Positions 8,253 to 63,124 of a stretch of 64,000 nt of DNA are shown here, piece after piece; the first letter of the stretch is position 1; every line of letters begins with the position of its first letter. The position numbers and the translations under genes were made by a program. The DNA lies in IMG/VR virus record IMGVR_UViG_3300029267_000581, positions 1 through 64,000 of that record; one strand, 5' to 3'. This DNA comes from a virus. Under the pieces are notes generated by a model. That model did not search any database. It worked only from the letters and a program-made list of their open reading frames with translations, and was not told where the DNA came from.

Positions 8253-8254
8253 CT

Positions 8255-23285: not shown

Positions 23286-24116
23286 TCAGAGACCGAATAT
23301 GCTCATACACGCCTCGACCGGCTGACCGGTTGTGAGGTGCATATACAGAGCGCCTTCGGCCTTCGTCAGGTTGCCGCCTCGAAGCTGGGAGATGCTCCCA
23401 AACTGACGACAGACAGCCTCGTGTTGCTCGCCATTCCGTGCAAGCTCATCTCTCAGGTTGAACGGAATCAGATCACCTGCCGAGACGGGAGTAGTCCCGG
23501 AAGCCTTCTGAATCGCACCAACCAGAGACCGAGCAAGCCGGTCCATCACGTCGCCGTCGAATGGCGGCGGGTTGAACTGCTCCGCCGGGACCTCTTCGTC
23601 CAGAGCGATCCCCTTGAGCAGCGCCCGAACAGGGGCGTTGTCGTTCTTGGGATTGCCCGTCACGGCGATGTTGAAAACGGTTGCCTTCTTGACCGTACCC
23701 TTCGGAGACCGCGCACCGACCTTACCTTCCAGGGAAAGCCCGAGGGTGCGTTCGACCTTGTCCTCCTCCAGAGACTTTGCGAGCTTCCAGACCGAGGGGG
23801 CCATTGGCCGCGACGGCAAAAGCTCCAGCTCCGTGTAGAGGCACTTCCCGAAGCCTGGACGGTCACGCAACTCCGCGACCAGGGGGACGCCGATGATCCC
23901 ATCGGGGTCTTGCCGGTGGTTCCAGTTGACCCACCCCTTCTTGAGCAAGGGCTTGACATCAAGCCCTTCCTGCAAGACCCGTTCACCATCGTCGTCAAGT
24001 GTTGGGGCAGAAGCCCACCCGTACAAAAGCATTCGCTCCTTGTCCGTGCCTGCGCCAGCCTTCACCAGACCAACGTCGTCGAAGGCGCAGACAATGTCTG
24101 TTCCGTGCTCGTACAA
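23286..24116 (-). CDS. Prohead maturation protease (HK97/S78-like)
   Basis: 276 aa with a TTG start 7 nt after GAGGAGG. The VNWNH and LGLSLEGK motifs resemble the His and Ser regions of HK97-type prohead proteases. Confidence 0.75.
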   Translation of the reverse strand: MYEHGTDIVCAFDDVGLVKAGAGTDKERMLLYGWASAPTLDDDGERVLQEGLDVKPLLKKGWVNWNHRQDPDGIIGVPLVAELRDRPGFGKCLYTELELLPSRPMAPSVWKLAKSLEEDKVERTLGLSLEGKVGARSPKGTVKKATVFNIAVTGNPKNDNAPVRALLKGIALDEEVPAEQFNPPPFDGDVMDRLARSLVGAIQKASGTTPVSAGDLIPFNLRDELARNGEQHEAVCRQFGSISQLRGGNLTKAEGALYMHLTTGQPVEACMSIFGL

Positions 24117-24118
24117 AC

Positions 24119-27100
24119 TTAGTCCTCCTCATCATCCGTGCGTGGCTTACCTACCGGGGGAAGGGTCAGATTTACCTGCACCGGAGGTGATAGTACCGCC
24201 TTCGTAACAACTGCCCTTCTGGCTTCTGAACTGACTGTACCAGGCTTGGTCTCTGCGGACCTGGACGGGGGTGGAGCTTCCACCTTGGGCAACATACGCT
24301 CGACCTGTATAACGCGCCTCGTCCTGTCTCTGCCACGAGTTTCGACAATGACTGGACGGGTAGACGTAGCAGTCTCCCTCGGCTTCTTCTGGTCCTTGCG
24401 TGGGTGCATAGTACCGCCACGCTCGACGGGCCTATCACCAGTAGCAAGAGACTGAGGGCGTACCACGTCACCTTGCTTGTAGCTCAAAGGCGGCGAAACA
24501 AAGATGGTTCTGTGCTCCATCCTGTCACCTGATCGCTGTTGGATCGCCTCCTGCCCACCAGGGGACTTCATGGCGGCATCCCACAGCTCCAGGAGGTTTG
24601 TAGCCACCCGTGTACGCAGTAGCGGATCGTGTTGTACTGTCTCGTGCGGAGGGGGGCGCTCACCGGGAGGTGTTTGTATGCCCGAAATCTCCTGTGACCG
24701 AGCCTTGGCCTTCTTGCCAGCGGCGCGAACGATCTCACCACCACGCTCGGCTGCCTCGGCTAGCTCCAGAACCTTCGCTGTCGCCTCTCGACGAAGACGT
24801 CTGCTTGTCTGATGACGGGGGTTATACACACCTCTTTGCTGAGACGGCTCGATCTCGCCCTCTTCGTTTACACCAGCCATCGGGAAATCCTGCCCACCCT
24901 CGGTCAGTCGGCGGAAGGCGACCTTGCGTTCGTTACTCCGTGACCAGGCTTCCCTCTCCGGTGTACCAGCGGCAGGAATCTGGGGGGTCTCCCCAGTGTG
25001 CCCCTCGAATCCAGGCGGAATATACCAGTTGGCGGGGTTTGCAGCCTCACCTAGAGCGAACTGCTTTCCGGTAGGAACCCAGCCTTTGCGTAGATTCACG
25101 ATCTCTGTGACAGAAGGAAGAGCGTTGGGGTGCCCAGGTGTGAGAAACCCGTTCATCTTCACGAGCTTGCGAAGCTGGGAAGCGCGTTCGTGCCACTTCT
25201 CGAAATCTTCCTTCTCCACAATGGAGTACAAAGGCTGCCAGGGGTACTGGCGCTCCTCAGAAGAGCCCGAGTGCAACATCTTGTGGTTGTAGACCTCGGG
25301 CTCATTCCAGCTTGCGTGGGCTCCTGGAAGCCTGTACCGCCTACGCATAGTAGGACCAGACTCGACCTTCGGCGGCACAAATGTTGGGTCGGCTGAAGCC
25401 AAACGAGCAAACCGCCTACGCCTCTCGACGTCGGCAGGAAGCTCCTGTCCAGGCTTGGGTCGACTGCGAGCGGCGAACCTTGAACCCTGACCACGGCTTT
25501 CTGCGATCTCTCGCATGACGCGCTTACGAGCGGCTATTGCCGATCTTTGTCGGATCAGCGCGTCACGCTCGGCGTCGGCTAGATGCAAAGGCCCCAAAGG
25601 ACCCATATCCATCGTTTTGCCGTGTTCCTTCAGCTCCTCCGTTGTGACGCCACCGTGCTTCCTCTGGTTGTACTCAGGGGAACGGAGCTTCTCGCGCATC
25701 GCCATGTGATAGGCGACAGGAGCGATAGCACCACGGAAGTCAGCCACGTTACGAGGTTGCTCTTCTGTACTCAGCTTCTCCAGGACATCCCTGCGTATGT
25801 TACCGCGAGAGTCCATCGGAACGCCGGGGTAGTTCTGCATCCCGATTGTGGCTTGCCACAAAGGGGCTACAGTTGGAGGCTTGAGCTTCGGCTTTGCCTT
25901 GTCAGTCCGCATCATCTTGCGAATCTGTTTGTTGGCTCTGTCGATCTGCTCCCGCTCGTACTGTATCTGTTGCCAACGATCCTCGACGTCGCTTTTGTCG
26001 AATCCCTTTCCTTGCTTGTTCCAGGACCGACGAAGCTCGTTCTTGGACTTCGGGTGCGCCGCCAGAGTAGCCTCGTTCCGCGAAAGCTGCTTCACGAGAC
26101 CGTCAATGACAGTGCTATCCACCTCGTAGTTCTGATGCTCCAGTGGAAGACCTGGAAACAGCATGAGGTCTAGCATGGCTAGATCGTCAGCATCGAGCTT
26201 GTGGTGGTCTTCCTTCTCCACACCCCAAGCACGACGACGCTCCAGCGCGTTGATGAGTTCCTGCCGCACCTTCGCTGACATCTCCAACGTGGCTATGTGC
26301 GAAGGGTGTACGACGTGGTCAACTGGTATACGAGCAACGATCTCGTCGTTCGGGTCACCCGTCCAGACAGGGTCGCTGCGCCGCCCACGCTCATCGTATG
26401 TATACCGCCAGCCGCGCATTACGCGCTCCTGGTCCATAGGACCCCTGGCACCGACAGTCTGACCGATGGGAGAACCTTGAGATAGCAGGTTGGTCGTGAG
26501 AGCCGCGTCGGCGTACATATCTGCCGGGAGCCCCATTTCGGCCTTACTGCCCCCATCCTCATCCATACCCTCCGGCTTTGATGCCCCAGTCTGGACTGGA
26601 ATGGACCTCTCAACCATGCCCTCAAGGAACTTTTCCCAAGGCTCCTTGTTACCTTTCTTCGCAGCCTCCAGAGCCTTCTGGCCTTTCGGTTGCTCGGCGA
26701 GGTATTTATCAATATCGTACTTCTTGCCCTGCGCCGCTGTCTTGATGGAATCCCATGAAGGCTTTGCCCTGAAAATTCCAGCCATCCTCTCAGCCTGTTT
26801 CGCAGACTCGACGATGTCTGTCCAGATGCGCCACCGCTTCCAGGAACCCCCACGACGCTCGCGCAACGAGATGTTGGCTTGTCGCCACTCCCCGAGGCGT
26901 TCGCCTGCAAGCTGTAGGGCTTCGATCTCTATCCGATCATGCACCTCTCTGGCTATGTGACCAAAGATCGCCATTGCCGAATGTGGATCTAACCCCTTAC
27001 GGACGTGTTGCTCGTTTTCAGGGTCATACGTGATGAGTGCCTCGATGGCGGCTTCAAGACCAGCCGATATGGCACGCTCGGCGTCCTTCTTGGGCACCGT

Positions 27101-28342
27101 AGTCTGACCCCTACGCTGAAAGGCATTGGCGTAGATGTGATCCATCACACCACGTTGCCAGTAGCTCTTGGCCCACTCACCCTCGGGCACCTCGCCCTCT
27201 ATCGGGACAGAGCGGAGAATGCGATTGCCGTCAGCGTCGATGACAGCGTGACGTGCCCCCATGATCTCAGCCATGAGAGTGTCCCACTGGTCTGCTGTGA
27301 TGTTGTTGTCCCTACCGAAAGCAGCCTTGTTGATACTCGGTCGGCCAGAACTGTACGTGACAGGCAGCTTGAGTTCACCCTTGGCTACAGCCTCCAATGT
27401 GCCGAAATACTGATTCGACACAGAGTTTGGCTCTTGCTGCGGGATCTCCTCGACGAACGGATGTGCCTTATCTGGTATGATCGCTTTCAGATCAGCCGAC
27501 ACCCTTGCCCGCATGTGGTTGTTTACGTGCCACTCCAACATCTTCTGCAACTCTCTCTTCTCAGAGAGGGACAGATCGCGAGCAGCGTTGTAAAGCTCGG
27601 GGCGCGGTGTAGCTCCGACCTTGCGGAACTCCATCTCGCCCTTCTCATTCTTGCCGACAGGGATGGTAGCCAACGGCTCTCTCGACTCATGCGGCTTCTT
27701 GAAGATGTTGTCGTGCAACATCCTACGAACAAGACGCTGTAGGTGCTTCGCCCTCTCATCGTCGGGCATCTGCCCCCAGCCGTCCTTGTACTTTATGATC
27801 TCGGCAGCGTCGTTGGCTACCTCCTCGGCTAGCTGGCTTGCCCTCTCAGACACACCAGTACCAAGGTGCGAGATCTCGTCCTCTTTCTTGAGACGCGCCT
27901 CGACGTACTTCTTGCGCTCCCTGTCCTTTATACGCTTCAGCCTGGCTGCGTCCTCTTTCTCGATACCGTACTCGGCACGTAGAACAGAGTCCAGGTTCTT
28001 AGCGTCAAAGGCCGCAGCCGCCATGTCGGCGACCCCGAGGTTGGCAAGGAGGAGAGCCGCGTTGATGCGTTCGAGTGTGGCATGGCCTTCCTTGTGCCAT
28101 GCGTCCCAATCGTCCTCGTCGATGTAGACGATTGCCGGATACGGTCTATCGTGTTCCTGGAGGCGTGGTGCGTCCTTCACCTCCTCGTGTTCCTCGCGTT
28201 GCTTGACCGTCTTCATGTAGCCCTGGTGGTAGATGCCGGTTGGACCGACACCTGGACGCACCCAGACGCGCTTCGCGACCAGCCCTTTTTGGAGAGCAAG
28301 GCTGGTCAACGCCTGGCTATTTCGCGCACCGAGCTTTAGCAC
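24119..28342 (-). CDS. Very large (about 1400 aa) Lys/Arg/Glu-rich protein of unknown function in the head module (internal/ejected virion protein candidate)
   Basis: 1465-aa ORF. The first 58 codons overlap the S66 gene, so a GTG at 28342 (or the ATG at 28216) is the likelier start. I recognise no catalytic motif. Confidence 0.65.
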   Translation of the reverse strand: MLKLGARNSQALTSLALQKGLVAKRVWVRPGVGPTGIYHQGYMKTVKQREEHEEVKDAPRLQEHDRPYPAIVYIDEDDWDAWHKEGHATLERINAALLLANLGVADMAAAAFDAKNLDSVLRAEYGIEKEDAARLKRIKDRERKKYVEARLKKEDEISHLGTGVSERASQLAEEVANDAAEIIKYKDGWGQMPDDERAKHLQRLVRRMLHDNIFKKPHESREPLATIPVGKNEKGEMEFRKVGATPRPELYNAARDLSLSEKRELQKMLEWHVNNHMRARVSADLKAIIPDKAHPFVEEIPQQEPNSVSNQYFGTLEAVAKGELKLPVTYSSGRPSINKAAFGRDNNITADQWDTLMAEIMGARHAVIDADGNRILRSVPIEGEVPEGEWAKSYWQRGVMDHIYANAFQRRGQTTVPKKDAERAISAGLEAAIEALITYDPENEQHVRKGLDPHSAMAIFGHIAREVHDRIEIEALQLAGERLGEWRQANISLRERRGGSWKRWRIWTDIVESAKQAERMAGIFRAKPSWDSIKTAAQGKKYDIDKYLAEQPKGQKALEAAKKGNKEPWEKFLEGMVERSIPVQTGASKPEGMDEDGGSKAEMGLPADMYADAALTTNLLSQGSPIGQTVGARGPMDQERVMRGWRYTYDERGRRSDPVWTGDPNDEIVARIPVDHVVHPSHIATLEMSAKVRQELINALERRRAWGVEKEDHHKLDADDLAMLDLMLFPGLPLEHQNYEVDSTVIDGLVKQLSRNEATLAAHPKSKNELRRSWNKQGKGFDKSDVEDRWQQIQYEREQIDRANKQIRKMMRTDKAKPKLKPPTVAPLWQATIGMQNYPGVPMDSRGNIRRDVLEKLSTEEQPRNVADFRGAIAPVAYHMAMREKLRSPEYNQRKHGGVTTEELKEHGKTMDMGPLGPLHLADAERDALIRQRSAIAARKRVMREIAESRGQGSRFAARSRPKPGQELPADVERRRRFARLASADPTFVPPKVESGPTMRRRYRLPGAHASWNEPEVYNHKMLHSGSSEERQYPWQPLYSIVEKEDFEKWHERASQLRKLVKMNGFLTPGHPNALPSVTEIVNLRKGWVPTGKQFALGEAANPANWYIPPGFEGHTGETPQIPAAGTPEREAWSRSNERKVAFRRLTEGGQDFPMAGVNEEGEIEPSQQRGVYNPRHQTSRRLRREATAKVLELAEAAERGGEIVRAAGKKAKARSQEISGIQTPPGERPPPHETVQHDPLLRTRVATNLLELWDAAMKSPGGQEAIQQRSGDRMEHRTIFVSPPLSYKQGDVVRPQSLATGDRPVERGGTMHPRKDQKKPRETATSTRPVIVETRGRDRTRRVIQVERMLPKVEAPPPSRSAETKPGTVSSEARRAVVTKAVLSPPVQVNLTLPPVGKPRTDDEED

Positions 28343-28352
28343 ACGAATCGGT

Positions 28353-29369
28353 CTAACCGGTGTGCCCAAATGCGTTACCCTCCCGCTCGTCCAAAACCAA
28401 GCAATCTTCCTTGAAAGTGATCTTGGCGCGAGCCCCTGATGCCAACACCAACCCTGAGTAGTCCGGGGCATGGTGACCGAAAGCGACGTTGCAGAACGCC
28501 GGAATTTGTACTCCAAGCCAGCGCAGGGCGTCTCGAACGAGACCCGCTGTGCTCGGGGGGTCGAAGTCGTATCCTATGCGAGTCATGGTGAGCCTGTCGG
28601 CTATGCCCGGAACAGGGCCAAAGCCGATAGCACCACCACCCTCTGCCACAGCTTCTATGAAAGGAGCCATGTGCGTCAAATCCTCATAGAAGCCGATCCA
28701 ATTCAGATCACCTGCTGGATAGGCGTCCTCGACGAGTAGGAAGCAACGCTGGCTCTTCAGATACCGTAGCGTCAGTTGCCGCACAGGACCGGTTATCTGA
28801 TTGAGTGTCCGTAGGCACATCGGAATGACGGTGTAGGGTTCGCTAGATGGGCGCACGGAGGACACGTTCTGAACGTCCACGAACGCATCCATGCGCTTCT
28901 CGGGGTGTTCAACCCACTCCCGCACACGCTGTAGTCCTTCGATGAGAGCTTCTTGCGATCCCATGAAGTTGACGCCGTAGAAACCCATTGCGAGGGATGA
29001 GATCGTTGCCCACAGGACATACACCGAGGAATCGCTTGCCCCGATGACTATGTTCTCCGTCACACGCTCCTGCGTGATGAGTCCGTTGCACATATGGTGT
29101 GCGATACGCGCCGCGCCTGAACCACCATCAGCGCAGATGATCATTCTCCGATCATCCGAGTCCAGCAACTCCAGGAATTCGTCGGCCAGGTCAGCCGCGT
29201 TCTCTGCATTATCACCACCGTCGGTGACGATAGGAGATGAGTGCGGCTTGATACCGTAGCGTCGGACCTTGCTGCCGAGAGCTGATTTGAACCACGACAC
29301 CCGTTGCTGAAGAGCTATGGGCGACGTTAGACCAGAACCGTGCCAGAGTATGACACCATATTCAGCCAT
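28353..29369 (-). CDS. Peptidase S66 family (LD-carboxypeptidase / MccF-like Ser-His-Glu hydrolase)
   Basis: Compared with E. coli LdcA, the following motifs align. ADGGSGAARI matches RGGYGASRLL. IGASDSSV matches GHSDFTAI (nucleophile Ser). LLVEDAYP matches LVLEDINE (Glu). VAFGHHAP matches LDFGHEQ (His). The start ATG 29369 overlaps the upstream stop by 8 nt. Confidence 0.8.
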   Translation of the reverse strand: MAEYGVILWHGSGLTSPIALQQRVSWFKSALGSKVRRYGIKPHSSPIVTDGGDNAENAADLADEFLELLDSDDRRMIICADGGSGAARIAHHMCNGLITQERVTENIVIGASDSSVYVLWATISSLAMGFYGVNFMGSQEALIEGLQRVREWVEHPEKRMDAFVDVQNVSSVRPSSEPYTVIPMCLRTLNQITGPVRQLTLRYLKSQRCFLLVEDAYPAGDLNWIGFYEDLTHMAPFIEAVAEGGGAIGFGPVPGIADRLTMTRIGYDFDPPSTAGLVRDALRWLGVQIPAFCNVAFGHHAPDYSGLVLASGARAKITFKEDCLVLDEREGNAFGHTG

Positions 29370-30048
29370 CGAGTGCCGCCTCTCTGGCGCGACACTCGTA
29401 ACACACACCGCAAGCTGGGTATATGTCACAGCTATGGGTCATGCTCATATCGACATCGTGGTGACGCCCGAGGGCAACCACGTCTTCCTTGGTAAGCTCG
29501 TTCAGAGGTGCAAGAAACATAGGAGCGCCACGCCCCCATATGGCCTGCCTCTCCGCGTTGAGGTAGTCGGTGAAGTACGCGCAGCAGTCGAGAAGCGTGT
29601 CTGATCTGCTTACGATCACTTCACCGTCTGGATTGTGCTGTTGGAACCCGGTAAGGACTCTTGAGCACCCACGCCGTACCGCCAAAGCCCCAAGCACGAT
29701 CCAGATGATCGTGTAGAGCCCTGGTGCGTAGTCGTCCCAGAGGGTGTCCTGTTTCTGCGCCAAGCCTTCGTCCCCAAGGGAGTCGACAGCACGCTTCTTC
29801 CGGTCACCCTTTTTGTCGAAGATCCGGCACCCCTCGGTAACTACAGAAGGTAGCTGCATCGGGATGACAGTCCAACGAACACCGAGACGCTCCGCATGAA
29901 ACTTCATGGCCTCGATTGCTACTTTCGAGGTCTTTGTCCCCAGGTCGACATGGGCAAGCTCTACTGAGTCAGCCCCCTCGGAATCCACCGTATCGTATGC
30001 AAGGACGGTCGAGTCCAGACCGCCACTGTACGCAATGATAGATTTCAT
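29362..30048 (-). CDS. Divergent QueC-family PP-loop ATPase (QueC-like 1)
   Basis: N-terminal MKSIIAYSGGLDSTVLAY PP-loop and a C-terminal Cys cluster SCDIYPACGVCYECR as in QueC. The P-x-RN and PDC motifs seen in the other two copies are replaced by APGLY and LDCC. Confidence 0.7.
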   Translation of the reverse strand: MKSIIAYSGGLDSTVLAYDTVDSEGADSVELAHVDLGTKTSKVAIEAMKFHAERLGVRWTVIPMQLPSVVTEGCRIFDKKGDRKKRAVDSLGDEGLAQKQDTLWDDYAPGLYTIIWIVLGALAVRRGCSRVLTGFQQHNPDGEVIVSRSDTLLDCCAYFTDYLNAERQAIWGRGAPMFLAPLNELTKEDVVALGRHHDVDMSMTHSCDIYPACGVCYECRAREAALDG

Positions 30049-31310
30049 CAGTCCCCTGCCTTCTTCGCACGTTTCGTCGCAGCCTTGGCTCTCGCGGCCT
30101 CGGCCTCGGCTGCCCTTCGGAGCTGTTCACGCCGCGCTTTCGCTTGCTCCATACGAGCCTCAACTTTATGAACGCCGCGTTCTGCTGCGGCTTGGACCGG
30201 CTGGACGGTTCGTTGCATGGCCCCCTGTTGGGCCACGCCAGCGTTCATCACGCCACTTGCCATCATAGCGCCGGATTGAGATGCTTGTTCAAGACCGTGT
30301 AACATCAGAGCCGCCCCACGCATGGAGGTTGTGGCGATACCGCCTATCCTGACGATTGCGCCCTTACCGCGAACGATGGGGATACTCTTGCCTCCGATCT
30401 TGATCGAACTCCGATCACCCGGTTGCTTCAAGCCTGTGACGGCTTCCTTGAGATCGCTGCCTATCTGGTTGAGCTTCTCTTTCACACCGGGTTCTGCCTT
30501 GGCGATGTACTCGTCAATGACCTTCTGATCGGCTGCGGCCTCTTCCTCCGCCAGCTCCTTCTTCTTTTGCTCAGACTGTTCCGGTAGATCCGGGGCGTCG
30601 AGCATAGAAGGCTTCTTGTCCTTGCCCCCAGCTTTATGTTCCATCTTGAACGTGCCAGGGGCTCCGGGCTTCGCGGCGGCGGCCAACTGCTTCGCTGTCT
30701 TCTTGTACTTCTCTTGCTCCTCGGGTGACATACCCTTTGGCATCTTCACCCCAGGATCGTCCTGCCGGTCTTTCTTCTTCTGGTGACGCTGAAAGACCTT
30801 GCCTCCACGATGAACCTCAACAAGCTCCTCGTGCAAAGCCGATGGGCCAGACGGAGCTTTCGCCGCAGCCGCCTGTTCGGCCTTCTTCTTTGCGATGTAC
30901 TCGGAGACATCGCGGCGAGCCTTGTTGAGCGTAAAGATGCGTACTGTTTCCATCTCACCTTGCCCTTTCGGCCAATCCGGCCAGTCTTTCGGGTAGAGCT
31001 GCGAAACCTTACCCGTCCTGCTCAAGCCGGATGGTGTCCAGGTACACAGGCAGTTGGGATGAGGTAGAACGTGTTTCCACCGCAAGATGGTCTTGATGAG
31101 GTGCTTCCTGTTGTTCAATCGTTCACAGATCGGACAGCAGGCGGGGTTGGCGTCGAAATAAGCATGCTTATACCCCTTGTCGTACCCGGCTTGGAGACGC
31201 GCCCGCACCTCTGGATCACGGTCCCGGACCACAGAAGGATGGTCCGTGCCCCGATTCCCGACGCCTGGACGCCACCCTACAGGCAGCTTCCTTTGTCTTT
31301 TCTTCGGCAT
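30048..31310 (-). CDS. MuF/SPP1 gp7-like minor head protein remnant fused to a long Lys/Ala/Glu-rich tail
   Basis: PACCPICERLNNRK...HVLPHPNCLCTW matches the CxxC...HPNC.C knuckle at the end of the MuF domain. It sits at residues 55-95, so most of a canonical MuF domain is absent. Confidence 0.6.
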   Translation of the reverse strand: MPKKRQRKLPVGWRPGVGNRGTDHPSVVRDRDPEVRARLQAGYDKGYKHAYFDANPACCPICERLNNRKHLIKTILRWKHVLPHPNCLCTWTPSGLSRTGKVSQLYPKDWPDWPKGQGEMETVRIFTLNKARRDVSEYIAKKKAEQAAAAKAPSGPSALHEELVEVHRGGKVFQRHQKKKDRQDDPGVKMPKGMSPEEQEKYKKTAKQLAAAAKPGAPGTFKMEHKAGGKDKKPSMLDAPDLPEQSEQKKKELAEEEAAADQKVIDEYIAKAEPGVKEKLNQIGSDLKEAVTGLKQPGDRSSIKIGGKSIPIVRGKGAIVRIGGIATTSMRGAALMLHGLEQASQSGAMMASGVMNAGVAQQGAMQRTVQPVQAAAERGVHKVEARMEQAKARREQLRRAAEAEAARAKAATKRAKKAGD

Positions 31311-31410: not shown

Positions 31411-32046
31411 TCAGTCGTCCTTGTGACACCCTTCGCACTCTCCACACGGGGAACCGTCGGAAAGAGGGGTGTAGCACCGTGAGAGGGCGTCGACAGGAAC
31501 CCCGAGGTCTTGTGCGAGAGTCCTGATCTGTGACCGATCAAGGTCGATCAGAGGTGTGAGCAACTCAGGCCCATCGGAGTCATCAGCGAATGCCTTGTTG
31601 TTGGCGGTGTAGATCCGACGCATCTCCCTGGCCCACTCAGGGCGACAGTCAGGGAAGGCAGGAGCGTCGGAGGCGGTGACGCCGATACAGACATCAGCAT
31701 CGACCTGTACGGCGTACTGGTAGGCGAACGAGCAGAGGATGGTGTTTCGCCCAGGAATGTAGCCCTTTGCGAGGTCTGAGTCGAGAGGAGCCACAGGACC
31801 GTCGCACGGAGGGAAGGGCGGGATGGTGACACGCCGGAGACGTTCGTGCCAGTTGGTCATGTTGATCTTCTTGAGCAGATACACGGCGACCGACAGCTCC
31901 TCGCTGGCTGCCTTGTTGTCGCCGAACTGGACGTACATGGGATAGATCTCGATGCCGTCCTTCGCCAGTTGGTAGAGCAGGACAGCGGAGTCGAGTCCCC
32001 CAGAAAGGAGCAGTACGACCTTGGGATGTTCTTTCGGATCGAGCAT
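31411..32046 (-). CDS. queC: 7-cyano-7-deazaguanine synthase family (QueC, copy 2)
   Basis: Carries LLLSGGLDSAVL, YIPGRN, AFPDCRPEW and CY...CGECEGC, the canonical QueC landmarks. Confidence 0.85.
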   Translation of the reverse strand: MLDPKEHPKVVLLLSGGLDSAVLLYQLAKDGIEIYPMYVQFGDNKAASEELSVAVYLLKKINMTNWHERLRRVTIPPFPPCDGPVAPLDSDLAKGYIPGRNTILCSFAYQYAVQVDADVCIGVTASDAPAFPDCRPEWAREMRRIYTANNKAFADDSDGPELLTPLIDLDRSQIRTLAQDLGVPVDALSRCYTPLSDGSPCGECEGCHKDD

Positions 32047-32750
32047 CAGAAACCTCCTCCGAGGGTGAGCCCCGCCGCCTTGCGGATCTTACAGGGTTCA
32101 CACTCTCCACAGGGCTGCTGCTTCCCGTGTACTTCCTTGGGGAAGTAGCAAGCCCAGGTGTTGTACGACGGAACATCAAGCCGCTCTGCCTCCTCCGCGA
32201 TCTGTGGTTTGATCAGGCTCACTAGAGGTGCGTACAGCTTGACAGGAAACTCATCATTGCCCCGAGCCGAGTCCTCCAGGTCGAAGACCTTTTGCATGGC
32301 GTCCACCCACGCCTGCGTGCAGTCAGGAAAGCTGGTCCTGTCCTGCATACGCGCCGACGAGTTGATGCCGATCCCTATCAGATCAGCCTTGATGAGCCTG
32401 GCATGGTAGTACCCAATCGTGGCGAAGACCGAGTTACGCATAGGAACGAGAGCCGGTGAAAAACCGTCGCCGTATTTGGCTGCGGCCCCACCGGTCAGGA
32501 AGTGATCGGGCAGAGAGACACTGGCCTGTTTGAATCCGAGGAACCTATGTTGGCAATCGGACTCGACCCTCCGAATGTGTCGCGCCACCTCGCGAACGCA
32601 GGACAGCTCGCCTTGGAACCCGAGCTGCCCATAGTCGAAGAACAGTGCTCCGACCTCGTAGTCACAAAACTCCTGCTCTTTCAGGAGCTTGTATAGAGTG
32701 GTCGTCGAGTCTATGCCGCCACTCCACAGAACCAAGGCTCTACGCATCAT
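32046..32750 (-). CDS. queC: 7-cyano-7-deazaguanine synthase family (QueC, copy 3)
   Basis: Carries LVLWSGGIDSTT, LVPMRN, SFPDCTQAW and WACY...CGECEPCKIR. It has a 1-nt stop/start overlap with copy 2. Confidence 0.85.
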   Translation of the reverse strand: MMRRALVLWSGGIDSTTTLYKLLKEQEFCDYEVGALFFDYGQLGFQGELSCVREVARHIRRVESDCQHRFLGFKQASVSLPDHFLTGGAAAKYGDGFSPALVPMRNSVFATIGYYHARLIKADLIGIGINSSARMQDRTSFPDCTQAWVDAMQKVFDLEDSARGNDEFPVKLYAPLVSLIKPQIAEEAERLDVPSYNTWACYFPKEVHGKQQPCGECEPCKIRKAAGLTLGGGF

Positions 32751-33404: not shown

Positions 33405-34334
33405 TCAGGAGTGCCCTTTACGGGCGGCCCGTCTATCCCTGTTGTGCTGTCTGACCATCGAAACGAGGGCTTCCTGAGCCTCGGAAGCAGTCTTGACCGT
33501 CTTGCGCCAGGGCTTTGAGGAGTGCGAGATTGTGTACCCACGGTCGTCACGGGTTACCGTCACACCTTGCAGCTTGACGGTAGAACCGGATTTCATCGTG
33601 GCAATGCTCTTCAGCTTGGCCTGGTTGCGTGATGAACTTTCGTTGAGCTTGTCTGCTCCGCTCTTCAGGCTTGACGTTCTGAGAGAGGGCAGATCCAAAG
33701 GAGCGTCCTCTCTTGGCTTGCGGGCCTCTTCGATCATGCGCTTACGTGCGGCCATACCGGAGCCGGGTTCTGGGTCAGCACGGACGAGAACCGTCTGGCG
33801 CTTCCCTGCCTTGTTGGTGATGACCTTTTTGATGAGAGGTCCTTTCATCAGCAAGGCGTCTGCCTGATCGGAGAGAGATCGGAGGTCGTGCCCTTTCCTC
33901 GCCACACCACCTGGAGAATCCTTTGCACGCACGACAGAAGCAGTAGGCTTCGACCGGGCCTTTTCGGCGGCAAGTCGCTTCTTCACAGAGTCCATCATGT
34001 GACGGTGCGACTCGTGAAGGTGGTACGTGGACGCCATTGAAGCCTGCTGCATGGCGTCAAGATCACCAGACTTCGCCGCCGCAGCGTAGGCGTCGTTGTG
34101 TTTGAGATGCTCTTTGTGGTGGTAGTCAGCCGTAGCCGCGTGCTCCTCGGGAGAGGTTCCCGGACGGATCTTGCCGCTCACGCGACGCGGACCACCGTAG
34201 CGACTGTGCGTCATGGTGAGTTCCGCGCCACTGACCTGATGGGGGGCATCCTGTGTACCGGCCCTCACGTAGACAGTTTGCCGTTTTCCGGCCTTGTTTG
34301 TGATGACCTTTTTCTGAAGGTGCGAACGGTCCAT
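33405..34334 (-). CDS. Basic head-module protein with an internal duplicated motif KKVITNKAGKRQTV(Y/L)VRA
   Basis: 309-aa ORF. The motif occurs at aa 8-25 and aa 169-186. Confidence 0.65.
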   Translation of the reverse strand: MDRSHLQKKVITNKAGKRQTVYVRAGTQDAPHQVSGAELTMTHSRYGGPRRVSGKIRPGTSPEEHAATADYHHKEHLKHNDAYAAAAKSGDLDAMQQASMASTYHLHESHRHMMDSVKKRLAAEKARSKPTASVVRAKDSPGGVARKGHDLRSLSDQADALLMKGPLIKKVITNKAGKRQTVLVRADPEPGSGMAARKRMIEEARKPREDAPLDLPSLRTSSLKSGADKLNESSSRNQAKLKSIATMKSGSTVKLQGVTVTRDDRGYTISHSSKPWRKTVKTASEAQEALVSMVRQHNRDRRAARKGHS

Positions 34335-36288: not shown

Positions 36289-37791
36289 TTAGAACAAGTC
36301 ACCCTCACCAGAGGGCCATTGCGAATCCCAGTCGCCACCGGCTTCGGCAGCGTCAGTGTCGTCTTCCCCGTCCGCACCCTGTTCGCCCATCGCCCCCTGT
36401 TTCTCTTGCATGAAACTGGGGTCACGAATGATGTCCCCATGCTCGATGGGTTCCATACCGTGTGCTTCGCGGACTTCGTTGATCGTCATGTAGACGCTGC
36501 TCTTCTCGCGGTCGAGCGTCATCCGATCTGATTCCGATTGCCGGTCAAAGCCGGTGAACTGAAACTCGAACTCCCCTTGCGGGTCGAGGACGGGCATGAG
36601 TTCTTGGTTCATGCAGTCCTCTATGAAGTCGACCAGAGTGCGTAGTCCCTTGTCACGCGAGGCTGTCAGCCTTGTTGCCTCCGGGGCCGAGTTGATCATG
36701 TTGCCACCACCTCCGATACCACCACTGCGGTTGGGGAAGTTGATCTCAACAGGATCAATACGGTAGAGGGCAGAACAGAGATTGACGATGTAGTCAAGGA
36801 ACGCACCGAACTCGATGTCTGTTGCCTGGGGGAAGTGGATGAAGTCGATCCTGCCACCCCGAGAGATCGGAAGTAGCGGGAGCTTGTGCTTCCCACGGAA
36901 GGTCGCTACCTGCGCCTTGTACCGAGCTTCGAGAGAGCGAAGCTGTTGCTCGTTGATGTCCGCGCCCGTAAGGGTGAGCATCCCTTTCGGCATCGAACCC
37001 GGCTGAAACTGCCTTGAGTTAGTTTCGTCGATGCCGAGGTGGGCTTGGACCATCCTCATTGCGATCTCGGCCTCTGATTCACCGTAGCCATTCTGCTTCA
37101 TGGCGGTAGTGATGTTCTCAGGGCAGAACATGAACTCCTCGTCACGGAACCTCGTGACGACCTTGCCCTGGTAGACCTGTACGTAGTCGTACTCCTGCGA
37201 CTTGGCCGGATCGACCACTCTGACAGTCGCACCGTCGATGGCGTAGAACTGCCTGGGGCTACCGATACGGTCCAACTCAATGAACCCGCACGGCTGATCC
37301 AATTCCAATCGGTCGCGCACGAACTTCTTGAGAAACGAAGCGAAGCCCCTCTCGTGCTTCTCCCTATGGGGTACGTCTTCACGAGAGCAGTTCTGAATGA
37401 ACTTCGTCATCGCCTCTTCACGCTGCTTCGTCGCGTCTTGGCGCTCTCCAGCGCCCTTCTTGAGTCGCACACGAAAGCCGTTGGCTCGACCCGTTGCCAT
37501 CTCAGAGTCTTCGTCCAGGTTCGGCCTGGAGAAAGGCATGAGCTGACCAATCCGCGTGAAGAAGATTGCTGAAAGGATCGAATCCCTGTGACAGAGGTAA
37601 CGCAGCGTCTCATACCCAACCCGACTAGGCTTCTCCCTGTATGCAGCAGAGGAGAGAGCCCAAACGAACGGGTCTGCGACCATTGGCCCACCGGGACCGC
37701 GTACCTCGTCAATCCCCGGCACCTCGACCTCGGCTTTGAAAAGGTCCAAGCCGTGACCGACTGCCGAGGCCAAATCACCAAGTAGTCCCAT
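36289..37791 (-). CDS. Portal protein
   Basis: 500 aa directly after the large terminase, with an acidic C-terminus. Size and order are typical, and the overall sequence looks portal-like to me. Confidence 0.8.
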   Translation of the reverse strand: MGLLGDLASAVGHGLDLFKAEVEVPGIDEVRGPGGPMVADPFVWALSSAAYREKPSRVGYETLRYLCHRDSILSAIFFTRIGQLMPFSRPNLDEDSEMATGRANGFRVRLKKGAGERQDATKQREEAMTKFIQNCSREDVPHREKHERGFASFLKKFVRDRLELDQPCGFIELDRIGSPRQFYAIDGATVRVVDPAKSQEYDYVQVYQGKVVTRFRDEEFMFCPENITTAMKQNGYGESEAEIAMRMVQAHLGIDETNSRQFQPGSMPKGMLTLTGADINEQQLRSLEARYKAQVATFRGKHKLPLLPISRGGRIDFIHFPQATDIEFGAFLDYIVNLCSALYRIDPVEINFPNRSGGIGGGGNMINSAPEATRLTASRDKGLRTLVDFIEDCMNQELMPVLDPQGEFEFQFTGFDRQSESDRMTLDREKSSVYMTINEVREAHGMEPIEHGDIIRDPSFMQEKQGAMGEQGADGEDDTDAAEAGGDWDSQWPSGEGDLF

Positions 37792-51907: not shown

Positions 51908-52690
51908 CTACGCGATGATGGCAGAGGCTACCACGTTGAACGGGTGGATGCTCTCCTGGCTATCGACATGGACAGTCCCCGAGATGATGCCGTCGATGTC
52001 CTTCAGAGCCGTCACGGCGTCCCGCACAACATCTTCGGCGAACTTCGGGTTGGCGAAGGCATCGGCGACGATCTGTTTCTCATCCGGGCGTTTCACGATG
52101 CCGTACACGGGGCTAGAGCCCGAGGTTCGTAGAGCAGCGATGACGTCCTCGATCCATACGTGGTTTCCTTGCGCGATCTGGACCTCGGCTGTGACCTCAC
52201 ACCTCTGCACATGAGCGGCTCTGTTGTCGTTGAGAGCCAGACTGCACGGACAGACGGACATGACCGGTACTGTGACGTGCATGTACTGGAAGACCATCGT
52301 GCCCGTGAGAGCCGCCTGAAGGACGGACCTATAGTACGCAGGGAACAGGTTGTCTGTGATCGGAGAACGATCATCAGGCACCCTGTAGTCGAACGAGTAC
52401 GCCGCCACGACGTGCTGACTCCCAAGGGCTTTCGCCACGTCGAGAACGAGCTGCTTCAGGATACCCTCCCCGGCCTTGTGCGGGCGTGTTTCCACAGCCC
52501 TAGCGATGCGGCTCAGATGTGTACCTTTCGAGTCCTCGTCAAGACGCACAGTGACGGTGAGGCTGGCGTCGTAAGGGACGTGCTCACCGTCCCTGTTCTT
52601 GAGAAGAAGCGGTGCCTTGACCCCGCTGAAACCGACCATGACAGGTATGCCCCTGTCGTCTCCTTGTGAGTGAATATCTGGCAAGCTCAT
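51908..52690 (-). CDS. folE2: GTP cyclohydrolase I type 2 (FolE2/MptA family)
   Basis: GTHLSRI matches THMSRF. VCPCS is the CPCS motif. AAHVQR matches AHNQR. QESIHPFNVVA matches ESIHNH.A. The start was chosen at MSLPDIH. Confidence 0.8.
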   Translation of the reverse strand: MSLPDIHSQGDDRGIPVMVGFSGVKAPLLLKNRDGEHVPYDASLTVTVRLDEDSKGTHLSRIARAVETRPHKAGEGILKQLVLDVAKALGSQHVVAAYSFDYRVPDDRSPITDNLFPAYYRSVLQAALTGTMVFQYMHVTVPVMSVCPCSLALNDNRAAHVQRCEVTAEVQIAQGNHVWIEDVIAALRTSGSSPVYGIVKRPDEKQIVADAFANPKFAEDVVRDAVTALKDIDGIISGTVHVDSQESIHPFNVVASAIIA

Positions 52691-52698
52691 CAGCCCTC

Positions 52699-53088
52699 CT
52701 ACACACCGCGCCAACCGAGGGCACCGGCGACCCACTGATCGACCTTGATCTCTCCGTGCATCGGTACGTTCACAGCGTTACCGCCTGTCTCGTCGATGCG
52801 AACCATGTACGTGTCATCCCTTGTCGGGTTCGTTATGGCACCTGTATCGAAGTCGTGGTAATACTCGCCAGGTGCGAGCGACGCCGATACCTCGGACATC
52901 TGCTGTTGTCGAGTTGTCCACCCAGCAGCCTTGAACGTGTCGTCGTTGAAGTCGTACCACTGCCCATCGCTTACGCGCTGTATCGAAAGCAAAACAGTGG
53001 TTAGCCCTGTCTGTGCGACCAGAGAACCATCCTTCAGAGCGGAGGTCTGAATGCGCTCCGTATCCCCTCCGAGTATACGAACCTGCAT
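52699..53088 (-). CDS. Hypothetical protein
   Basis: 129-aa ORF. Confidence 0.5.
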   Translation of the reverse strand: MQVRILGGDTERIQTSALKDGSLVAQTGLTTVLLSIQRVSDGQWYDFNDDTFKAAGWTTRQQQMSEVSASLAPGEYYHDFDTGAITNPTRDDTYMVRIDETGGNAVNVPMHGEIKVDQWVAGALGWRGV

Positions 53089-57930: not shown

Positions 57931-57946
57931 GATCTGACTCCGATCA
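57931..57946. repeat. Exact copy 2 of the dispersed 16-bp element GATCTGACTCCGATCA. On the minus strand it reads TGA-TCGGAGTCAGATC-ATG and links the two fibre genes
   Basis: Identical to 14100-14115. Confidence 0.9.
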
Positions 57947-59693: not shown

Positions 59694-59710
59694 TGATCGG
59701 CGTCAGATCA
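59694..59710. repeat. Inverted-orientation copy of the dispersed element (TGATCGGCGTCAGATCA). The QueE stop codon lies in its arm
   Basis: Direct reading. It has 1 mismatch to the exact 16-mer when reverse-complemented. Confidence 0.7.
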
Positions 59711-60379
59711 TGGCATGTTCACGAACTTGTGCCACTGAATAGACAACCGGGGCATGAAGCCGAGAGCCATCTGAATGTGTTGTGAGCATCTGAGAGCCAT
59801 CGGGAGGCTCGACTTGATGCCGTCATCCCGCCACTCTGGCTGGATGCAGATTGTCTTCGTCATGACTCTTTTCAGCACCGCGCTCTTCGCGTCAGCGTTG
59901 GGCAGTATACTGAGAATGGAGTCCACAACAGCATCGTTACCAGGCCAACAGCCCGGCACGACGTATTTCAACTCGTCGATGTCGCCGCATCCAAGAACGA
60001 CGTCGGAGTCATGTTTCGGTGAGCACACAACGTGAGCGATACCTTTGAAGTGCCCAAGTACACCCCTGACAGCCCCGTTGGTCTCCAGCATGAACATACC
60101 AAACGTCTCGTTGCGCCACGCGGCTAGAACCTTCGCAAGTTCGATGTCCATGTGTAACAGAGGCTCCCCGCCAGTCAGCATGACAGCGGGGTACTTTCGC
60201 GGGAGGCGTTCTGCGAACTCGTCAGCGTCGAGAATGTACCTCGGGCGTGCAAGGTGTTCGTCACAGAATGGGCACGCGAGGTTACACCCAGCGAAGCGCA
60301 ACAGGCGTACAGGCCAACCTGACATGGCCCCCTCTGCCTGGTACGTGTCCACGATTTCCGATAGCTTGTATTTGCCCAC
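59708..60379 (-). CDS. queE: 7-carboxy-7-deazaguanine synthase (radical SAM QueE)
   Basis: EIVDTYQAEG, FAGCNLACPFCD and LTGGEPLL. The GTG start at 60379 lies 5 nt after GGAGG. Confidence 0.85.
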   Translation of the reverse strand: MGKYKLSEIVDTYQAEGAMSGWPVRLLRFAGCNLACPFCDEHLARPRYILDADEFAERLPRKYPAVMLTGGEPLLHMDIELAKVLAAWRNETFGMFMLETNGAVRGVLGHFKGIAHVVCSPKHDSDVVLGCGDIDELKYVVPGCWPGNDAVVDSILSILPNADAKSAVLKRVMTKTICIQPEWRDDGIKSSLPMALRCSQHIQMALGFMPRLSIQWHKFVNMP

Positions 60380-60461
60380 ATTACCTCCAATGGAACACGT
60401 AGGGGGCGCAGCCAAAGCCGCGCCCCCTACACGTAGTTTGCACAAAGCGATCCGACACAGA

Positions 60462-60882: not shown

Positions 60883-61734
60883 TTACTTGTCTTTGCCGAA
60901 GTATTGCTTTATCAGCTTTACGACAGCGCCCGCACGGGTTTCCTCGGCCATGGCTTCACACAGGTCTTCGAGCATGTCTTCGATTTCGTCTGTCCCCGGA
61001 AGGGACAACATGATGGGCATACCCCGAGATGACTCTTTGAGCTGCGTAGAACCACCACCTTCGGCCTCAGCACCAAATCCTCCGATGGAGCTGAAGTCGA
61101 TGTTGCTGAACATATCTTCGTCCGTACCTTCGTCGGAACCTGACCCTGCACCTCCTCCCAACGAGCCCATAGGGGCGAGCGGCTTCAAAGTGCCAGCCTC
61201 GTCAGCACCCACGACGCCGAGTAGCTCTTCCAAAGCATCCTTGTCGCGTGCAGTAGCCGTCGCGATCTCGTTGATCGGAATCTGATCGTCTCGCATCTCG
61301 CGAAGGACCTCGAAAAAGCCCTTCTCGTCCAATTCAGCACTTACGTTGAAACTGAACATAGCAAGGTCGGCGTCAGCCGGAGACACAGATTGACCTTGCT
61401 TGTCAGTGAGAACAACGACCGGAACGGTATCGTATCCACGAGTGCTCAGTTCGTCGATACGGTGGTGCCCGTCGATAAGCTCCCACTCACCAGACGTCTT
61501 GCCTGGAATGACAATGACTGGATCACGAGGTCCGAGCCTGCCGATGGAGTCTTTGAGAGCCTGGAGCTGCAAGTCATCCATCTTACGAAAGCGTGTCTTC
61601 CGCTGCTTGATTGACTTGATGTAGACCTCACCGATCTGCAAGCCGGTCTCAAGCTCGACAAACTCATTCACAGCGAGTTTGCGAGCAGCCTTACTCGTGG
61701 TCTTCTTTTTCTTCTTTTTGCCCGCCTTCTTCAT
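60883..61734 (-). CDS. ParB/Srx-fold N-terminal domain protein (DGHHR motif) with an acidic Gly-rich C-terminal half
   Basis: PVIVIPGKTSGEWELIDGHHRIDEL follows the ParB-like nuclease-domain pattern. It has an ATGA overlap with the DpdA-like gene. Confidence 0.7.
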   Translation of the reverse strand: MKKAGKKKKKKTTSKAARKLAVNEFVELETGLQIGEVYIKSIKQRKTRFRKMDDLQLQALKDSIGRLGPRDPVIVIPGKTSGEWELIDGHHRIDELSTRGYDTVPVVVLTDKQGQSVSPADADLAMFSFNVSAELDEKGFFEVLREMRDDQIPINEIATATARDKDALEELLGVVGADEAGTLKPLAPMGSLGGGAGSGSDEGTDEDMFSNIDFSSIGGFGAEAEGGGSTQLKESSRGMPIMLSLPGTDEIEDMLEDLCEAMAEETRAGAVVKLIKQYFGKDK

Positions 61735-62774
61735 CTGACCCTTCTCCGTGGGGGTGCCACAACAGCGTGCCGAGGATTCCAGTTGTCCTCACCCTCGCCC
61801 AACTGCTCCGCCCAGTTGATACCTTTGTTCCGCCAGTACGCAGTAAACCAAGACTCCATGTCGGCAAAGACCTTGGCCTGGTCGAGGAAGATTGCCACGT
61901 TGTTTATCTTCCTCTTACCATCTGCATCCTTACGGCCAGTAATATCCAGAAGACTCAGGCGGCACCCATGACGCTGTAGCTTGCTGAGATTCTTAGCGGC
62001 GGCTGTCCAACCTTTGCGCTGGACGAACCCCCTACCTAGATCAACCCGCACAAGCTCTCCTCTGGTACGGTCAAAAGCTAATGCACCCCCGAAGTGGAGC
62101 GCCTGTTGCCAGGAGACAGAGTCAACACTGTAGAAGGGCACAGCCTTCAAGGCCGATGTCCGAGTAACTGCGTACCCGTGAATCCTGACGTCATTGTGGT
62201 AGCACTCTAACGCCAAGTCCTTCATCTCTGTGTAGTATGCCTCCTGGGTTCCCCACTGTTCCTTTATCAGCTTCTTGCTGTAAGCCATGGAGACACCGAG
62301 ATAGTGGCACCACTCCTCCGAAAGAAGGCTCCACACACTCTCCGTGCCGTGCCAAGCGAAGACGACAGGAATACCAGTCTGGTCCTGAAAGGGCAGAGCG
62401 TAGTTGTCCCGCCAGTCGTCGATGACCTCCTGCCCGTAGATGTCAGGAAGGTCCAACTCAGCAACAGCCTTCAGGGGAAAGCCCTGCTCGTGTAGCCAAA
62501 GACAGCTCCCGAAGTGGGAGCGCACTACTTCCGTGGCCTCGGCGACGGTGGGGAGCTTGTCGTGCTTGTAGTAAGCGGAGCGAATGATGAATGCGCCCGA
62601 GTCAACGAAAAGTGATCTGGGGTAGATCGCATGGCACGCTTTGGCGATGATCCTGGCCCGAGCACCTGGCTTGCCGTTGGCAGTGAGTAGGAGCCTCACA
62701 GAAAAGTCCGTTTTGCCGACATTCTTGTAACGAGACACCACGGGCGATGCCTCGTCCGCGATGTAGACTTTCAA
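61731..62774 (-). CDS. dpdA: DpdA-like DNA guanine transglycosylase (TGT superfamily)
   Basis: FVDSGAFII matches the DSGGFQ/DSGAF catalytic region of TGT/DpdA. RIHGYAVT...FYSVDSVSW resembles the second TGT Asp region. The portion of the ORF upstream of 62774 overlaps QueD and is Arg-rich junk. A TTG at 62774 is the only candidate start. Confidence 0.7.
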   Translation of the reverse strand: MKVYIADEASPVVSRYKNVGKTDFSVRLLLTANGKPGARARIIAKACHAIYPRSLFVDSGAFIIRSAYYKHDKLPTVAEATEVVRSHFGSCLWLHEQGFPLKAVAELDLPDIYGQEVIDDWRDNYALPFQDQTGIPVVFAWHGTESVWSLLSEEWCHYLGVSMAYSKKLIKEQWGTQEAYYTEMKDLALECYHNDVRIHGYAVTRTSALKAVPFYSVDSVSWQQALHFGGALAFDRTRGELVRVDLGRGFVQRKGWTAAAKNLSKLQRHGCRLSLLDITGRKDADGKRKINNVAIFLDQAKVFADMESWFTAYWRNKGINWAEQLGEGEDNWNPRHAVVAPPRRRVR

Positions 62775-63124
62775 AGGCTCCTGCCGATCTCGGTCTCGGC
62801 GTAAGAGTTGCCCCCTTCGTACAGCCGAACCCTGACGCGATGGATGTGCTCTCCGAGCGACAGAGCGTTCATCGCAAGGAACCTCGACAGATTCTCGGCT
62901 GTCGGAATACTCGCAGTGAGAATCTCGTTGAGATCCTTGTGGTCGAGCTGCTTGACCAGGGCTTTCACATCGTGGAAGTCCACGATCATGCCGTTCTCTT
63001 GGACCTCCCCCTCCACCCTGATGCTGACACTGTACGTATGTCCGTGAACTACCCCGCACTTGTCGTGACCGGGGAGATGATGGGCGGCGTCAAACTTGCC
63101 CTCCCATGTGACTGATGTTCTCAT
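62771..63124 (-). CDS. queD: 6-carboxy-5,6,7,8-tetrahydropterin synthase (QueD/PTPS)
   Basis: FDAAHHLPGHDKCGVVHGHTY is the QueD signature. AGGAGG lies upstream of the ATG at 63124. Confidence 0.85.
   Translation of the reverse strand: MRTSVTWEGKFDAAHHLPGHDKCGVVHGHTYSVSIRVEGEVQENGMIVDFHDVKALVKQLDHKDLNEILTASIPTAENLSRFLAMNALSLGEHIHRVRVRLYEGGNSYAETEIGRSL

Follow-up and report, generated by a model that had tools for sequence, protein, structure and literature searches.

A divergent S66-fold protein and QueC-like paralogues in the head operon of a rare phage clade

The S66-like gene and its neighbors

A gene for an S66-like serine hydrolase lies next to a QueC-like gene in a 64,000-nucleotide stretch of viral DNA (IMG/VR record IMGVR_UViG_3300029267_000581, positions 1 to 64,000), which is called here the window and belongs to a phage contig of ~87 kb. 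A preliminary description of this DNA had placed the hydrolase in the S66 family, had listed the motifs that it shares with LdcA, and had proposed that it is coupled to the QueC-like gene. All genes of the window are on the minus strand. The genes that form the cassette considered here are, in the order of transcription:

32046..32750, minus strand: Q1, a QueC-like protein of 234 aa; Pfam QueC 125.5 bits, the highest of the three QueC-like proteins; YGQ, VPMRN, FPDC and the zinc motif kept
31411..32046, minus strand: Q2, a QueC-like protein of 211 aa; Pfam QueC 119 bits; IPGRN, FPDC and the zinc motif kept
30048..31310, minus strand: protein X, 420 aa; a MuF-like zinc-ribbon motif (CCPIC...LPHPNCLCTW) at the N terminus, followed by a conserved middle and a tail rich in Lys, Glu and Ala
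29362..30048, minus strand: Q3, a QueC-like protein of 228 aa with a remodeled active site; Pfam QueC (PF06508) 61.9 bits
28353..29369, minus strand: S66-like Ser/His/Glu hydrolase, 338 aa; Ser112, Glu214/Asp215 and His299; identified by Pfam PF02016 and by AlphaFold2 (AF2) modeling with Foldseek
24119..28369, minus strand: giant protein, ~1416 aa, with a putative TTG start at 28369; charged, no cysteine

The S66 open reading frame (ORF) starts at ATG 29369, with the sequence GAGAGG ~9 nt on its 5′ side, and its stop codon occupies positions 28353-28355. A longer ORF that would begin with GTG at 29429 was rejected because the homologues all begin at the Met equivalent to ATG 29369. The four S66 motifs listed in the preliminary description are all found in the 338-aa protein, as GGSGAARI (residues 82-89), GASDSS (110-115), VED (213-215) and FGH (297-299). 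The family assignment passes the Pfam threshold for the Peptidase_S66 N-terminal domain (PF02016, 36.5 bits against a cut-off of 25). The separate Pfam model of the C-terminal domain and the NCBIfam models were unmatched, and a single-sequence comparison with solved structures was marginal (E 0.025).

Structure prediction is in agreement with the Pfam result. An AF2 model computed from a 13-member family alignment has a predicted local distance difference test score (pLDDT) of 84.5 and a predicted template modeling (TM) score of 0.88, and a Foldseek search of the PDB with this model returned LdcA or MccF proteins as all of the top 21 matches, the next match having E>0.01. These matches (TM 0.57-0.65, 12-17% identity) extend through both domains over ~350 columns and include LdcA 6uuk (E 3e-13) and MccF 3tlg/3tlb. 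In the family profile, Ser112 falls on the nucleophile position and the FGH motif on the FGH of the catalytic His in solved S66 proteins. Both Ser112 and His299 are present in 12 of the 13 subfamily members, the acidic residue is Glu or Asp, and the adjacent Asp215 is invariant. No amidotransferase, whether of class I or otherwise, was present among the structural matches of the model or among the Pfam and NCBIfam matches. The S66 membership and triad that had been read from the motifs are therefore borne out by Pfam, by fold and by the triad alignment, and the protein appears to be a highly divergent S66-fold serine amidase, apparently active since its triad is intact.

The phage protein shares with LdcA (MEROPS S66; PDB 6uuk, 5z01, 3g23) the two-domain fold and the positions of the Ser (G-x-S-D), of the acid ((L/V)ED) and of the His (FGH). 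It differs from LdcA in being only 12-17% identical, in escaping the Pfam C-domain model, in being encoded in a head operon, and in having invariant motifs of its own family (EDxYP, YEDLT and FGPVPG). The fold is likewise common to MccF, the microcin C7 self-immunity protein (PDB 3tlb, 3tlg, 4iix; TM 0.64), although no sequence relationship exists beyond that of the family and the genomic context is unrelated. MccF provides a precedent for hydrolysis, by an S66 enzyme, of an amide between an amino acid and a nucleotide-like group, and the role proposed below calls for chemistry of this kind.

Relatives of this protein are rare. Among 5.8 billion protein clusters, a word-indexed search recovered four that belong to the subfamily, and an exhaustive profile search of 1.84 billion representatives gave 17 S66 matches at E<=1e-3, of which 12 were below 1e-10 and the weakest five resemble ordinary S66 proteins. 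No match was found by tblastn against 50,697 GenBank phage records, no PHROGs family was matched by the S66 protein, no S66-fold protein was found in BFVD, and GTDB species genomes scanned with the S66 protein and with X contained no members of the clade. An IMG/VR scan with an alignment of close S66 homologues was empty, and two loci that it missed were later recovered with an alignment of the remote group. In a full-text literature search, phage S66 peptidases were the subject of no paper. The subfamily is confined to one rare environmental phage clade, in which it always resides within the head operon. What is new is a very divergent S66 subfamily in a setting from which S66 has no earlier report.

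The physical coupling of Q3 and the S66 gene is real in the window. The reverse complement of positions 29362-29369 is ATGGCTGA, in which the S66 ATG and the Q3 TGA are combined in the 8-nt overlap that had been reported. The reverse complement of positions 30046-30050 is TGATG, wherein the stop of the 420-aa X gene and the Q3 ATG share 1 nt, again as described. On the other side of the S66 gene, the putative TTG start of the giant gene overlaps the S66 stop by 17 nt.

The cassette in related phages

Loci of related phages were collected by exact-protein look-ups and pattern scans, and were annotated by BLAST and hidden Markov model (HMM) comparisons with the window proteins. They represent ~9 metagenomic phage lineages, all from one clade, whose capsid proteins are 58-75% identical and whose terminases are ~49% identical where measured. 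Loci are designated by number, and their gene orders are:

Window, L001/L002, L005 and L042: Q1-Q2-X-Q3-S66-giant (L005 and L042 are short contigs, each covering part of this order)
L003/L004: Q1-Q2-Q3-X′-S66-giant
L013/L015: radical SAM-Q1-Q3-X-S66-giant
L046: one canonical-looking QueC-X-S66-giant
L008/L009: Q1-X-S66-giant
L010: QueC (C-terminal fragment at the contig edge)-X-S66-giant
L007: X-S66
L040/L019: Q3-X-giant, with no S66 at maximum HMM sensitivity
L043/L044: IS605 element-S66-protease, with no QueC, X or giant

A QueC-like gene is located upstream of S66, within ~2.5 kb, at every locus that has an intact S66 gene and enough upstream sequence (the window, L001, L003, L005, L042, L013, L046, L008 and L010). 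The co-occurrence of QueC-like and S66 genes in relatives, which the preliminary description had named as a check, holds for the cassette as a whole and fails for the specific pair of Q3 and S66. These two genes are adjacent only in the sub-clade of the window (the window, L001, L005 and L042), in which their start/stop overlap persists down to 35-37% S66 identity; elsewhere, X separates the QueC genes from S66. The adjacency is a derived feature of one sub-clade. A head-operon cassette with multiple QueC paralogues is previously undescribed, and is not demonstrably a new system.

In L043/L044, where QueC, X and the giant gene have been lost, the S66 protein (P0013) carries Gly in place of the catalytic Ser and Ser in place of the His, and the motifs of the family are altered. 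Directly upstream of this catalytically dead S66-like gene in L043, where the missing cassette genes would be, lies an IS605-type TnpA/TnpB pair (8343-9905). A separate peculiarity of L013 is a 278-aa radical SAM protein (7696-8532) directly upstream of Q1, which has a borderline match to the lysine-2,3-aminomutase C-terminal model and is unrelated to the QueE-like gene of the window. FolE2 was not found in a single-protein scan for the L013-type phage.

The three QueC-like proteins form three orthologous groups, and Q1 orthologues are present in L001, L003, L008 and L013. When aligned with database QueC sequences, Q1 and Q2 retain VPxRN, (F/Y)PDC and the zinc cysteines. By contrast, Q3 retains only SGGLDS, one Asp and the zinc site with its four cysteines, and lacks YxQ, the Arg-Asn of VPxRN and the aromatic-Pro of YPDC. 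None of the three reaches the NCBIfam QueC equivalog cut-off; for Q3, the score against TIGR00364 is 44.5 bits, compared to the 150.3 required. Proteins of the Q3 type fall in only seven clusters, beyond which scores drop from >190 to 91 bits. Mutagenesis has established that the Arg of VPxRN and the aromatic residue of YPDC are essential for preQ0 formation, and mutants at the positions that Q3 has lost, YxQ included, are inactive (PMC13329287). Because Q3 is devoid of these essential residues, an archaeosine- or preQ0-type reaction is unlikely for this protein, as judged from its sequence.

The AF2 model of Q3 (pLDDT 85.6) has as its best Foldseek match Cap9 (9nto_B; E 4e-8, TM 0.64/0.79, 19% identity). 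Cap9 is itself near canonical QueC, so that the match does not discriminate between the two functions, and we treat it as a lead and not as a functional assignment. Q3 also resembles QatC of the QatABCD system in that the ATP loop and the zinc site are kept while the substrate motifs are changed.

Protein X is present in all cassette lineages, and its N-terminal ~95 residues are the best-conserved part of the cassette (47-66% identity across lineages). Neither Pfam, PHROG nor NCBIfam provides a match for X, and six orthologues also lack one in Pfam even at E<=1. However, the weak relatives of its motif are true Pfam Phage_Mu_F (PF04233) proteins, with the match located at the end of their MuF domain, and in one case examined (L031) such a relative directly follows the portal gene. 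The "MuF-like" label that the preliminary description gave to the 420-aa gene is thus plausible at the level of this motif and of transitive similarity to PF04233 proteins, whereas the family HMM itself is unmatched. Like the MuF minor head proteins (PF04233; SPP1 gp7 and Mu gpF), X has the C...C / HPNC.C zinc-ribbon signature and is encoded downstream of the portal. It departs from them in that the MuF domain can be recognized only by its C-terminal half, which is located at the N terminus of X.

Two variants of X deserve mention. The L003 orthologue (3183-3998) is without the whole N-terminal MuF-like zinc-ribbon, and in this phage Q3 precedes X instead of following it. In L019 (1145-3631) and L040 (5503-7977), X carries an intein-like insertion of ~370 aa, which begins with Cys, ends with ...SGN followed by Cys, and has a middle part resembling a homing endonuclease. 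The insertion is positioned exactly inside the MuF-like motif (LPHPN|CMCSW), which suggests that the motif is functionally critical.

The start of the giant protein was assigned from sequence conservation upstream of ATG 28216 and from the gene calls of L001 and L005, where the geometry is the same. The homologues measure 1385-1884 aa. They come after S66 in the recovered sequence of L001, L003, L005, L008, L010, L013 and L046; in L040, where S66 is absent, the giant gene comes directly after X, and L043 has no giant gene. No Pfam, PHROG or NCBIfam domain was found in the giant protein, including when four to six diverged orthologues of X and of the giant protein were searched at E<=1, and a profile of five giant proteins had no match among PDB sequences. 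X begins with M[A/P/G]KK or MPRN, and the putative giant starts are MG, MG, MV and MA in the window, L001, L003 and L005, respectively. A conserved N-terminal Gly was considered as a signature of the giant protein and rejected, given the MV of L003 and the MA of L005.

Short repeated segments occur in several of these proteins. The 309-aa protein of the window (33405-34334) contains two copies of KKVITNKAGKRQTV[YL]VR, and the X protein of L040 contains KKTITNKAGKKQVVWVR (near 6952). Related short strands, of the type (I/V)(R/H)V(F/W/L), are found repeatedly at both termini of the giant proteins and in X, and may constitute a shared targeting or docking motif of head-internal proteins. Regular-expression hunts for a short motif shared among the internal proteins were too noisy to be of use.

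The head operon and the 7-deazaguanine genes of the window

Transcription of the region proceeds from the terminase and the portal protein through proteins of 637, 309 and 86 aa to Q1, Q2, X, Q3, S66 and the giant protein, and then to the prohead protease and the capsid protein. The flanking head genes are:

37822-39669, minus strand: terminase
36289..37791, minus strand: portal protein (Pfam Phage_portal and GpA_ATPase), the upstream bound of the region
23286..24116, minus strand: prohead maturation protease (phrog_1028, E 3.5e-31), at the downstream end of the cassette
20767-22224, minus strand: capsid protein

Promoter and terminator scans gave no signal above chance inside the cassette. 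The capsid protein is ~30% identical to those of SPO1-like phages and, because the identity is only this high, the phage has no close cultured relative. A pyrimidine-dimer DNA glycosylase gene (Pfam Pyr_excise, 40039-40695) is separated from the large terminase gene, on the upstream side of the latter, by ~370 nt that contain a small ORF.

Some 30 kb from the cassette, together with a gene for a GT4 glycosyltransferase, are the genes of a 7-deazaguanine pathway:

51908..52735, minus strand: FolE2 (GTP cyclohydrolase IB; Pfam GCHY-1, 193 bits)
59708..60445, minus strand: QueE-like radical SAM enzyme (Pfam Radical_SAM; best NCBIfam match queE_Cx14CxxC, 57 bits)
60883..61734, minus strand: ParB_N protein, DpdB-like (Pfam ParB_N), adjoining the DpdA-like gene
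61731..62741, minus strand: DpdA-like protein of the TGT family, 336 aa (phrog_887, queuine tRNA-ribosyltransferase, E 1.2e-11; limits taken from the parent contig)
62771..63124, minus strand: QueD (PTPS; Pfam PF01242, matched by its identical copy on the parent contig, L036 8611-8964)

The DpdA-like gene was recognized through PHROGs; single-sequence PDB searches with candidate DpdA proteins gave no match. The ParB_N gene directly follows the DpdA-like gene, an arrangement that resembles the DpdA/DpdB pair of bacterial Dpd systems, and QueD lies just upstream. In ~82 of the 87 kb, the only QueC candidates are Q1, Q2 and Q3 of the head operon. Very probably, this phage puts a 7-deazaguanine into its own DNA. 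The GT4 gene (53504-54805), which lies between the QueE-like and FolE2 genes, also matches the Pfam model "GT4 in conflict systems", and two proteins of ~550-575 aa are encoded nearby (56302-59674). The GT4 protein and these neighbors may be further enzymes of DNA hypermodification.

Possible roles of the S66 protein

QueC-family enzymes adenylate the 7-carboxylate of 7-carboxy-7-deazaguanine (CDG) and couple it to ammonia, the partner being instead a protein N terminus in the case of Cap9 and QatC (PMC13329287; bioRxiv 10.1101/2025.04.06.647259). We propose, tentatively and with somewhat less than even confidence, that the S66 amidase works together with the QueC-type amide ligases of the cassette on a 7-carboxamido-deazaguanine, either as a small molecule or as a protein-borne group. 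The phage FolE2, QueD and QueE enzymes would make CDG, and the QueC-family enzymes of the cassette would adenylate its 7-carboxylate and join an amine to it. For the canonical-looking Q1 and Q2 this amine would be ammonia, whereas the remodeled Q3 would probably take something bigger, for example a peptide, an amino acid or an amino group on a protein. The hydrolytic partner would then be the S66 protein, which trims or removes the group attached through the resulting amide. Such a reaction would match those of the S66 enzymes LdcA and MccF, which hydrolyze amides with an anionic leaving group; MccF acts on an aminoacyl-nucleotide.

Given that a clade-specific amidase is locked in a cassette with one to three QueC-type ligases, trimming of the ligase product is the most economical reading. 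The fact that the catalytic residues of S66 decay where the cassette has been lost (L043/L044) fits this reading. The encoded CDG supply and DNA transglycosylase (DpdA-like) also count in its favor, as does the remodeling of Q3 in the fashion of QatC, with the protein-modifying Cap9 as its nearest solved structure. Fold, triad, synteny, phyletic pattern and pathway genes are matters of observation; what we infer is a substrate common to amidase and ligases, the nature of the acceptor, and the direction that the S66 reaction would serve.

Several findings weigh against such a partnership. Start/stop overlaps are generic in this DNA, wherein 41 of the 79 adjacent gene pairs overlap, 23 of them by 1, 4 or 8 nt (the count is based on longest-ORF gene calls, which inflate larger overlaps), and the overlap of Q3 with S66 is less telling because overlaps are routine. 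S66 occurs without Q3 in the recovered sequence of L008 and L046 (which both have another QueC type) and of L010 (which has the QueC C-terminal fragment), and L040 has Q3, X and the giant gene but no S66, so that neither Q3 nor S66 needs the other. The constant neighbors of S66 are X and the giant gene and not a QueC gene. Because the lineages are interrelated, their linkage is not independent evidence and may be inherited synteny. Finally, no candidate acceptor with the Gly-rich N terminus of known deazaguanylation targets was found when the starts of X and the giant protein were inspected.

The main alternative, to which we give somewhat less credence, is that S66 is a head-associated peptidase independent of QueC, which is made along with X and the giant protein, may be packaged with them, and either processes these proteins or is ejected with them and cuts the peptide stems of the cell wall. 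Gene order favors this explanation, in that S66 is encoded between the portal and the prohead protease and, outside the sub-clade of the window, directly between X and the giant gene. The coupling is tight, as S66 overlaps the giant gene by 17 nt in the window, L001 and L005, and overlaps X by 4 nt in L003. Promoter and terminator signals inside the cassette do not exceed chance, and X bears the MuF-type motif. MuF proteins are cargo-carrying head proteins. However, X and the giant protein are only putative virion proteins, and in L040 they exist without S66. Moreover, known S66 enzymes are cytoplasmic and act on free or nucleotide-linked peptides, trimming of terminal D-Ala would leave the cell wall unopened, and the constant company of one to three QueC-like genes would be unexplained. 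The preliminary description had phrased a related option as a cell-wall peptidase that "happens to be adjacent", which is too weak a statement because the cassette is so stable.

Two further explanations assign the cassette more specific chemistry. The model originally put forward for this locus is that S66 acts as a glutaminase or amidase feeding ammonia to the adjacent QueC-like enzyme, the pair standing in for Gat-QueC, as two separate proteins and without homology to it, in the synthesis of an archaeosine-type base. In its favor, the 8-nt S66/Q3 overlap is kept in L001, L042 and L005, genes for the CDG pathway and for a DpdA-like enzyme are present, and the S66 N-terminal domain is, we assume, classed with class I amidotransferase-like folds. 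The Gat-QueC systems of phage 9g and Crenarchaeota likewise combine an amide hydrolase with a QueC-family enzyme, in the phage together with FolE, QueD, QueE and DpdA. There, however, Gat is a class II amidotransferase fused to a complete QueC, whereas here a separate S66-fold protein has as its immediate QueC neighbor a protein, Q3, that is devoid of key catalytic residues. QueC takes free ammonia as its nitrogen source, no sign of a glutaminase and no amidotransferase were seen among the fold matches, X stands between the QueC genes and S66 in most lineages, and the pair is not conserved, as S66 without Q3 and Q3 without S66 both occur. Since Q3 is also catalytically incomplete, lacking residues essential for QueC chemistry (PMC13329287), we regard the two-protein analogue of Gat-QueC as unsupported and highly improbable. 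We consider improbable, to a lesser degree, a phage version of protein deazaguanylation, in which X or the giant protein would receive CDG on an amino group from one or more of the QueC-like enzymes, and S66 would expose the acceptor or remove the adduct. In every lineage whose sequence extends far enough, the gene directly upstream of X is QueC-like, and this layout echoes the enzyme-next-to-target arrangements of Cap9/CdnD and QatC/QatB (PMC13329287). The Q3 pocket is remodeled, with Cap9 as best structural match, and the genome encodes a TGT-family enzyme. As with Cap9 of the type IV cyclic-oligonucleotide-based antiphage signaling system (CBASS) and with QatC, the QueC-like gene of most lineages is beside a non-enzymatic protein (X). 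Unlike those systems, the cassette belongs to a phage and not to bacterial defense, and has no adjacent TGT-like Cap10, no QatA and no QatD. Against this explanation, the N termini of X and the giant protein are without the M(G/S)G(G/S)GG sequence of known targets, 30 kb separate the cassette from the DpdA-like gene, whose surroundings are DNA-modification genes, and Q1, Q2 and the single QueC of L046 are canonical-looking.

The partnership between the amidase and the QueC-type ligases admits a more elaborate form, which we consider very improbable. The cassette could build a cleavable covalent link between protein and DNA, in which a QueC-like ligase would place CDG on an amino group of X or the giant protein, the DpdA-like and ParB-like proteins would swap the conjugate into phage DNA via its free N9, and S66 would later free the protein by cutting the amide. 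We know of no protein-DNA tether of that kind in any virus. The authors of the type IV CBASS study raised N9 transfer of protein-linked NDG as possible.

The cassette holds up to three QueC paralogues, one of them remodeled like the enzymes lately found to deazaguanylate proteins. Should amidase and ligases have a substrate in common, they would represent the first ligate-and-trim route at the 7-carboxyl of a deazaguanine, leading to a new DNA base or else to the first viral nucleobase-protein conjugation. If the substrate is not shared, the S66 protein would still represent a new class of head-associated phage peptidase.

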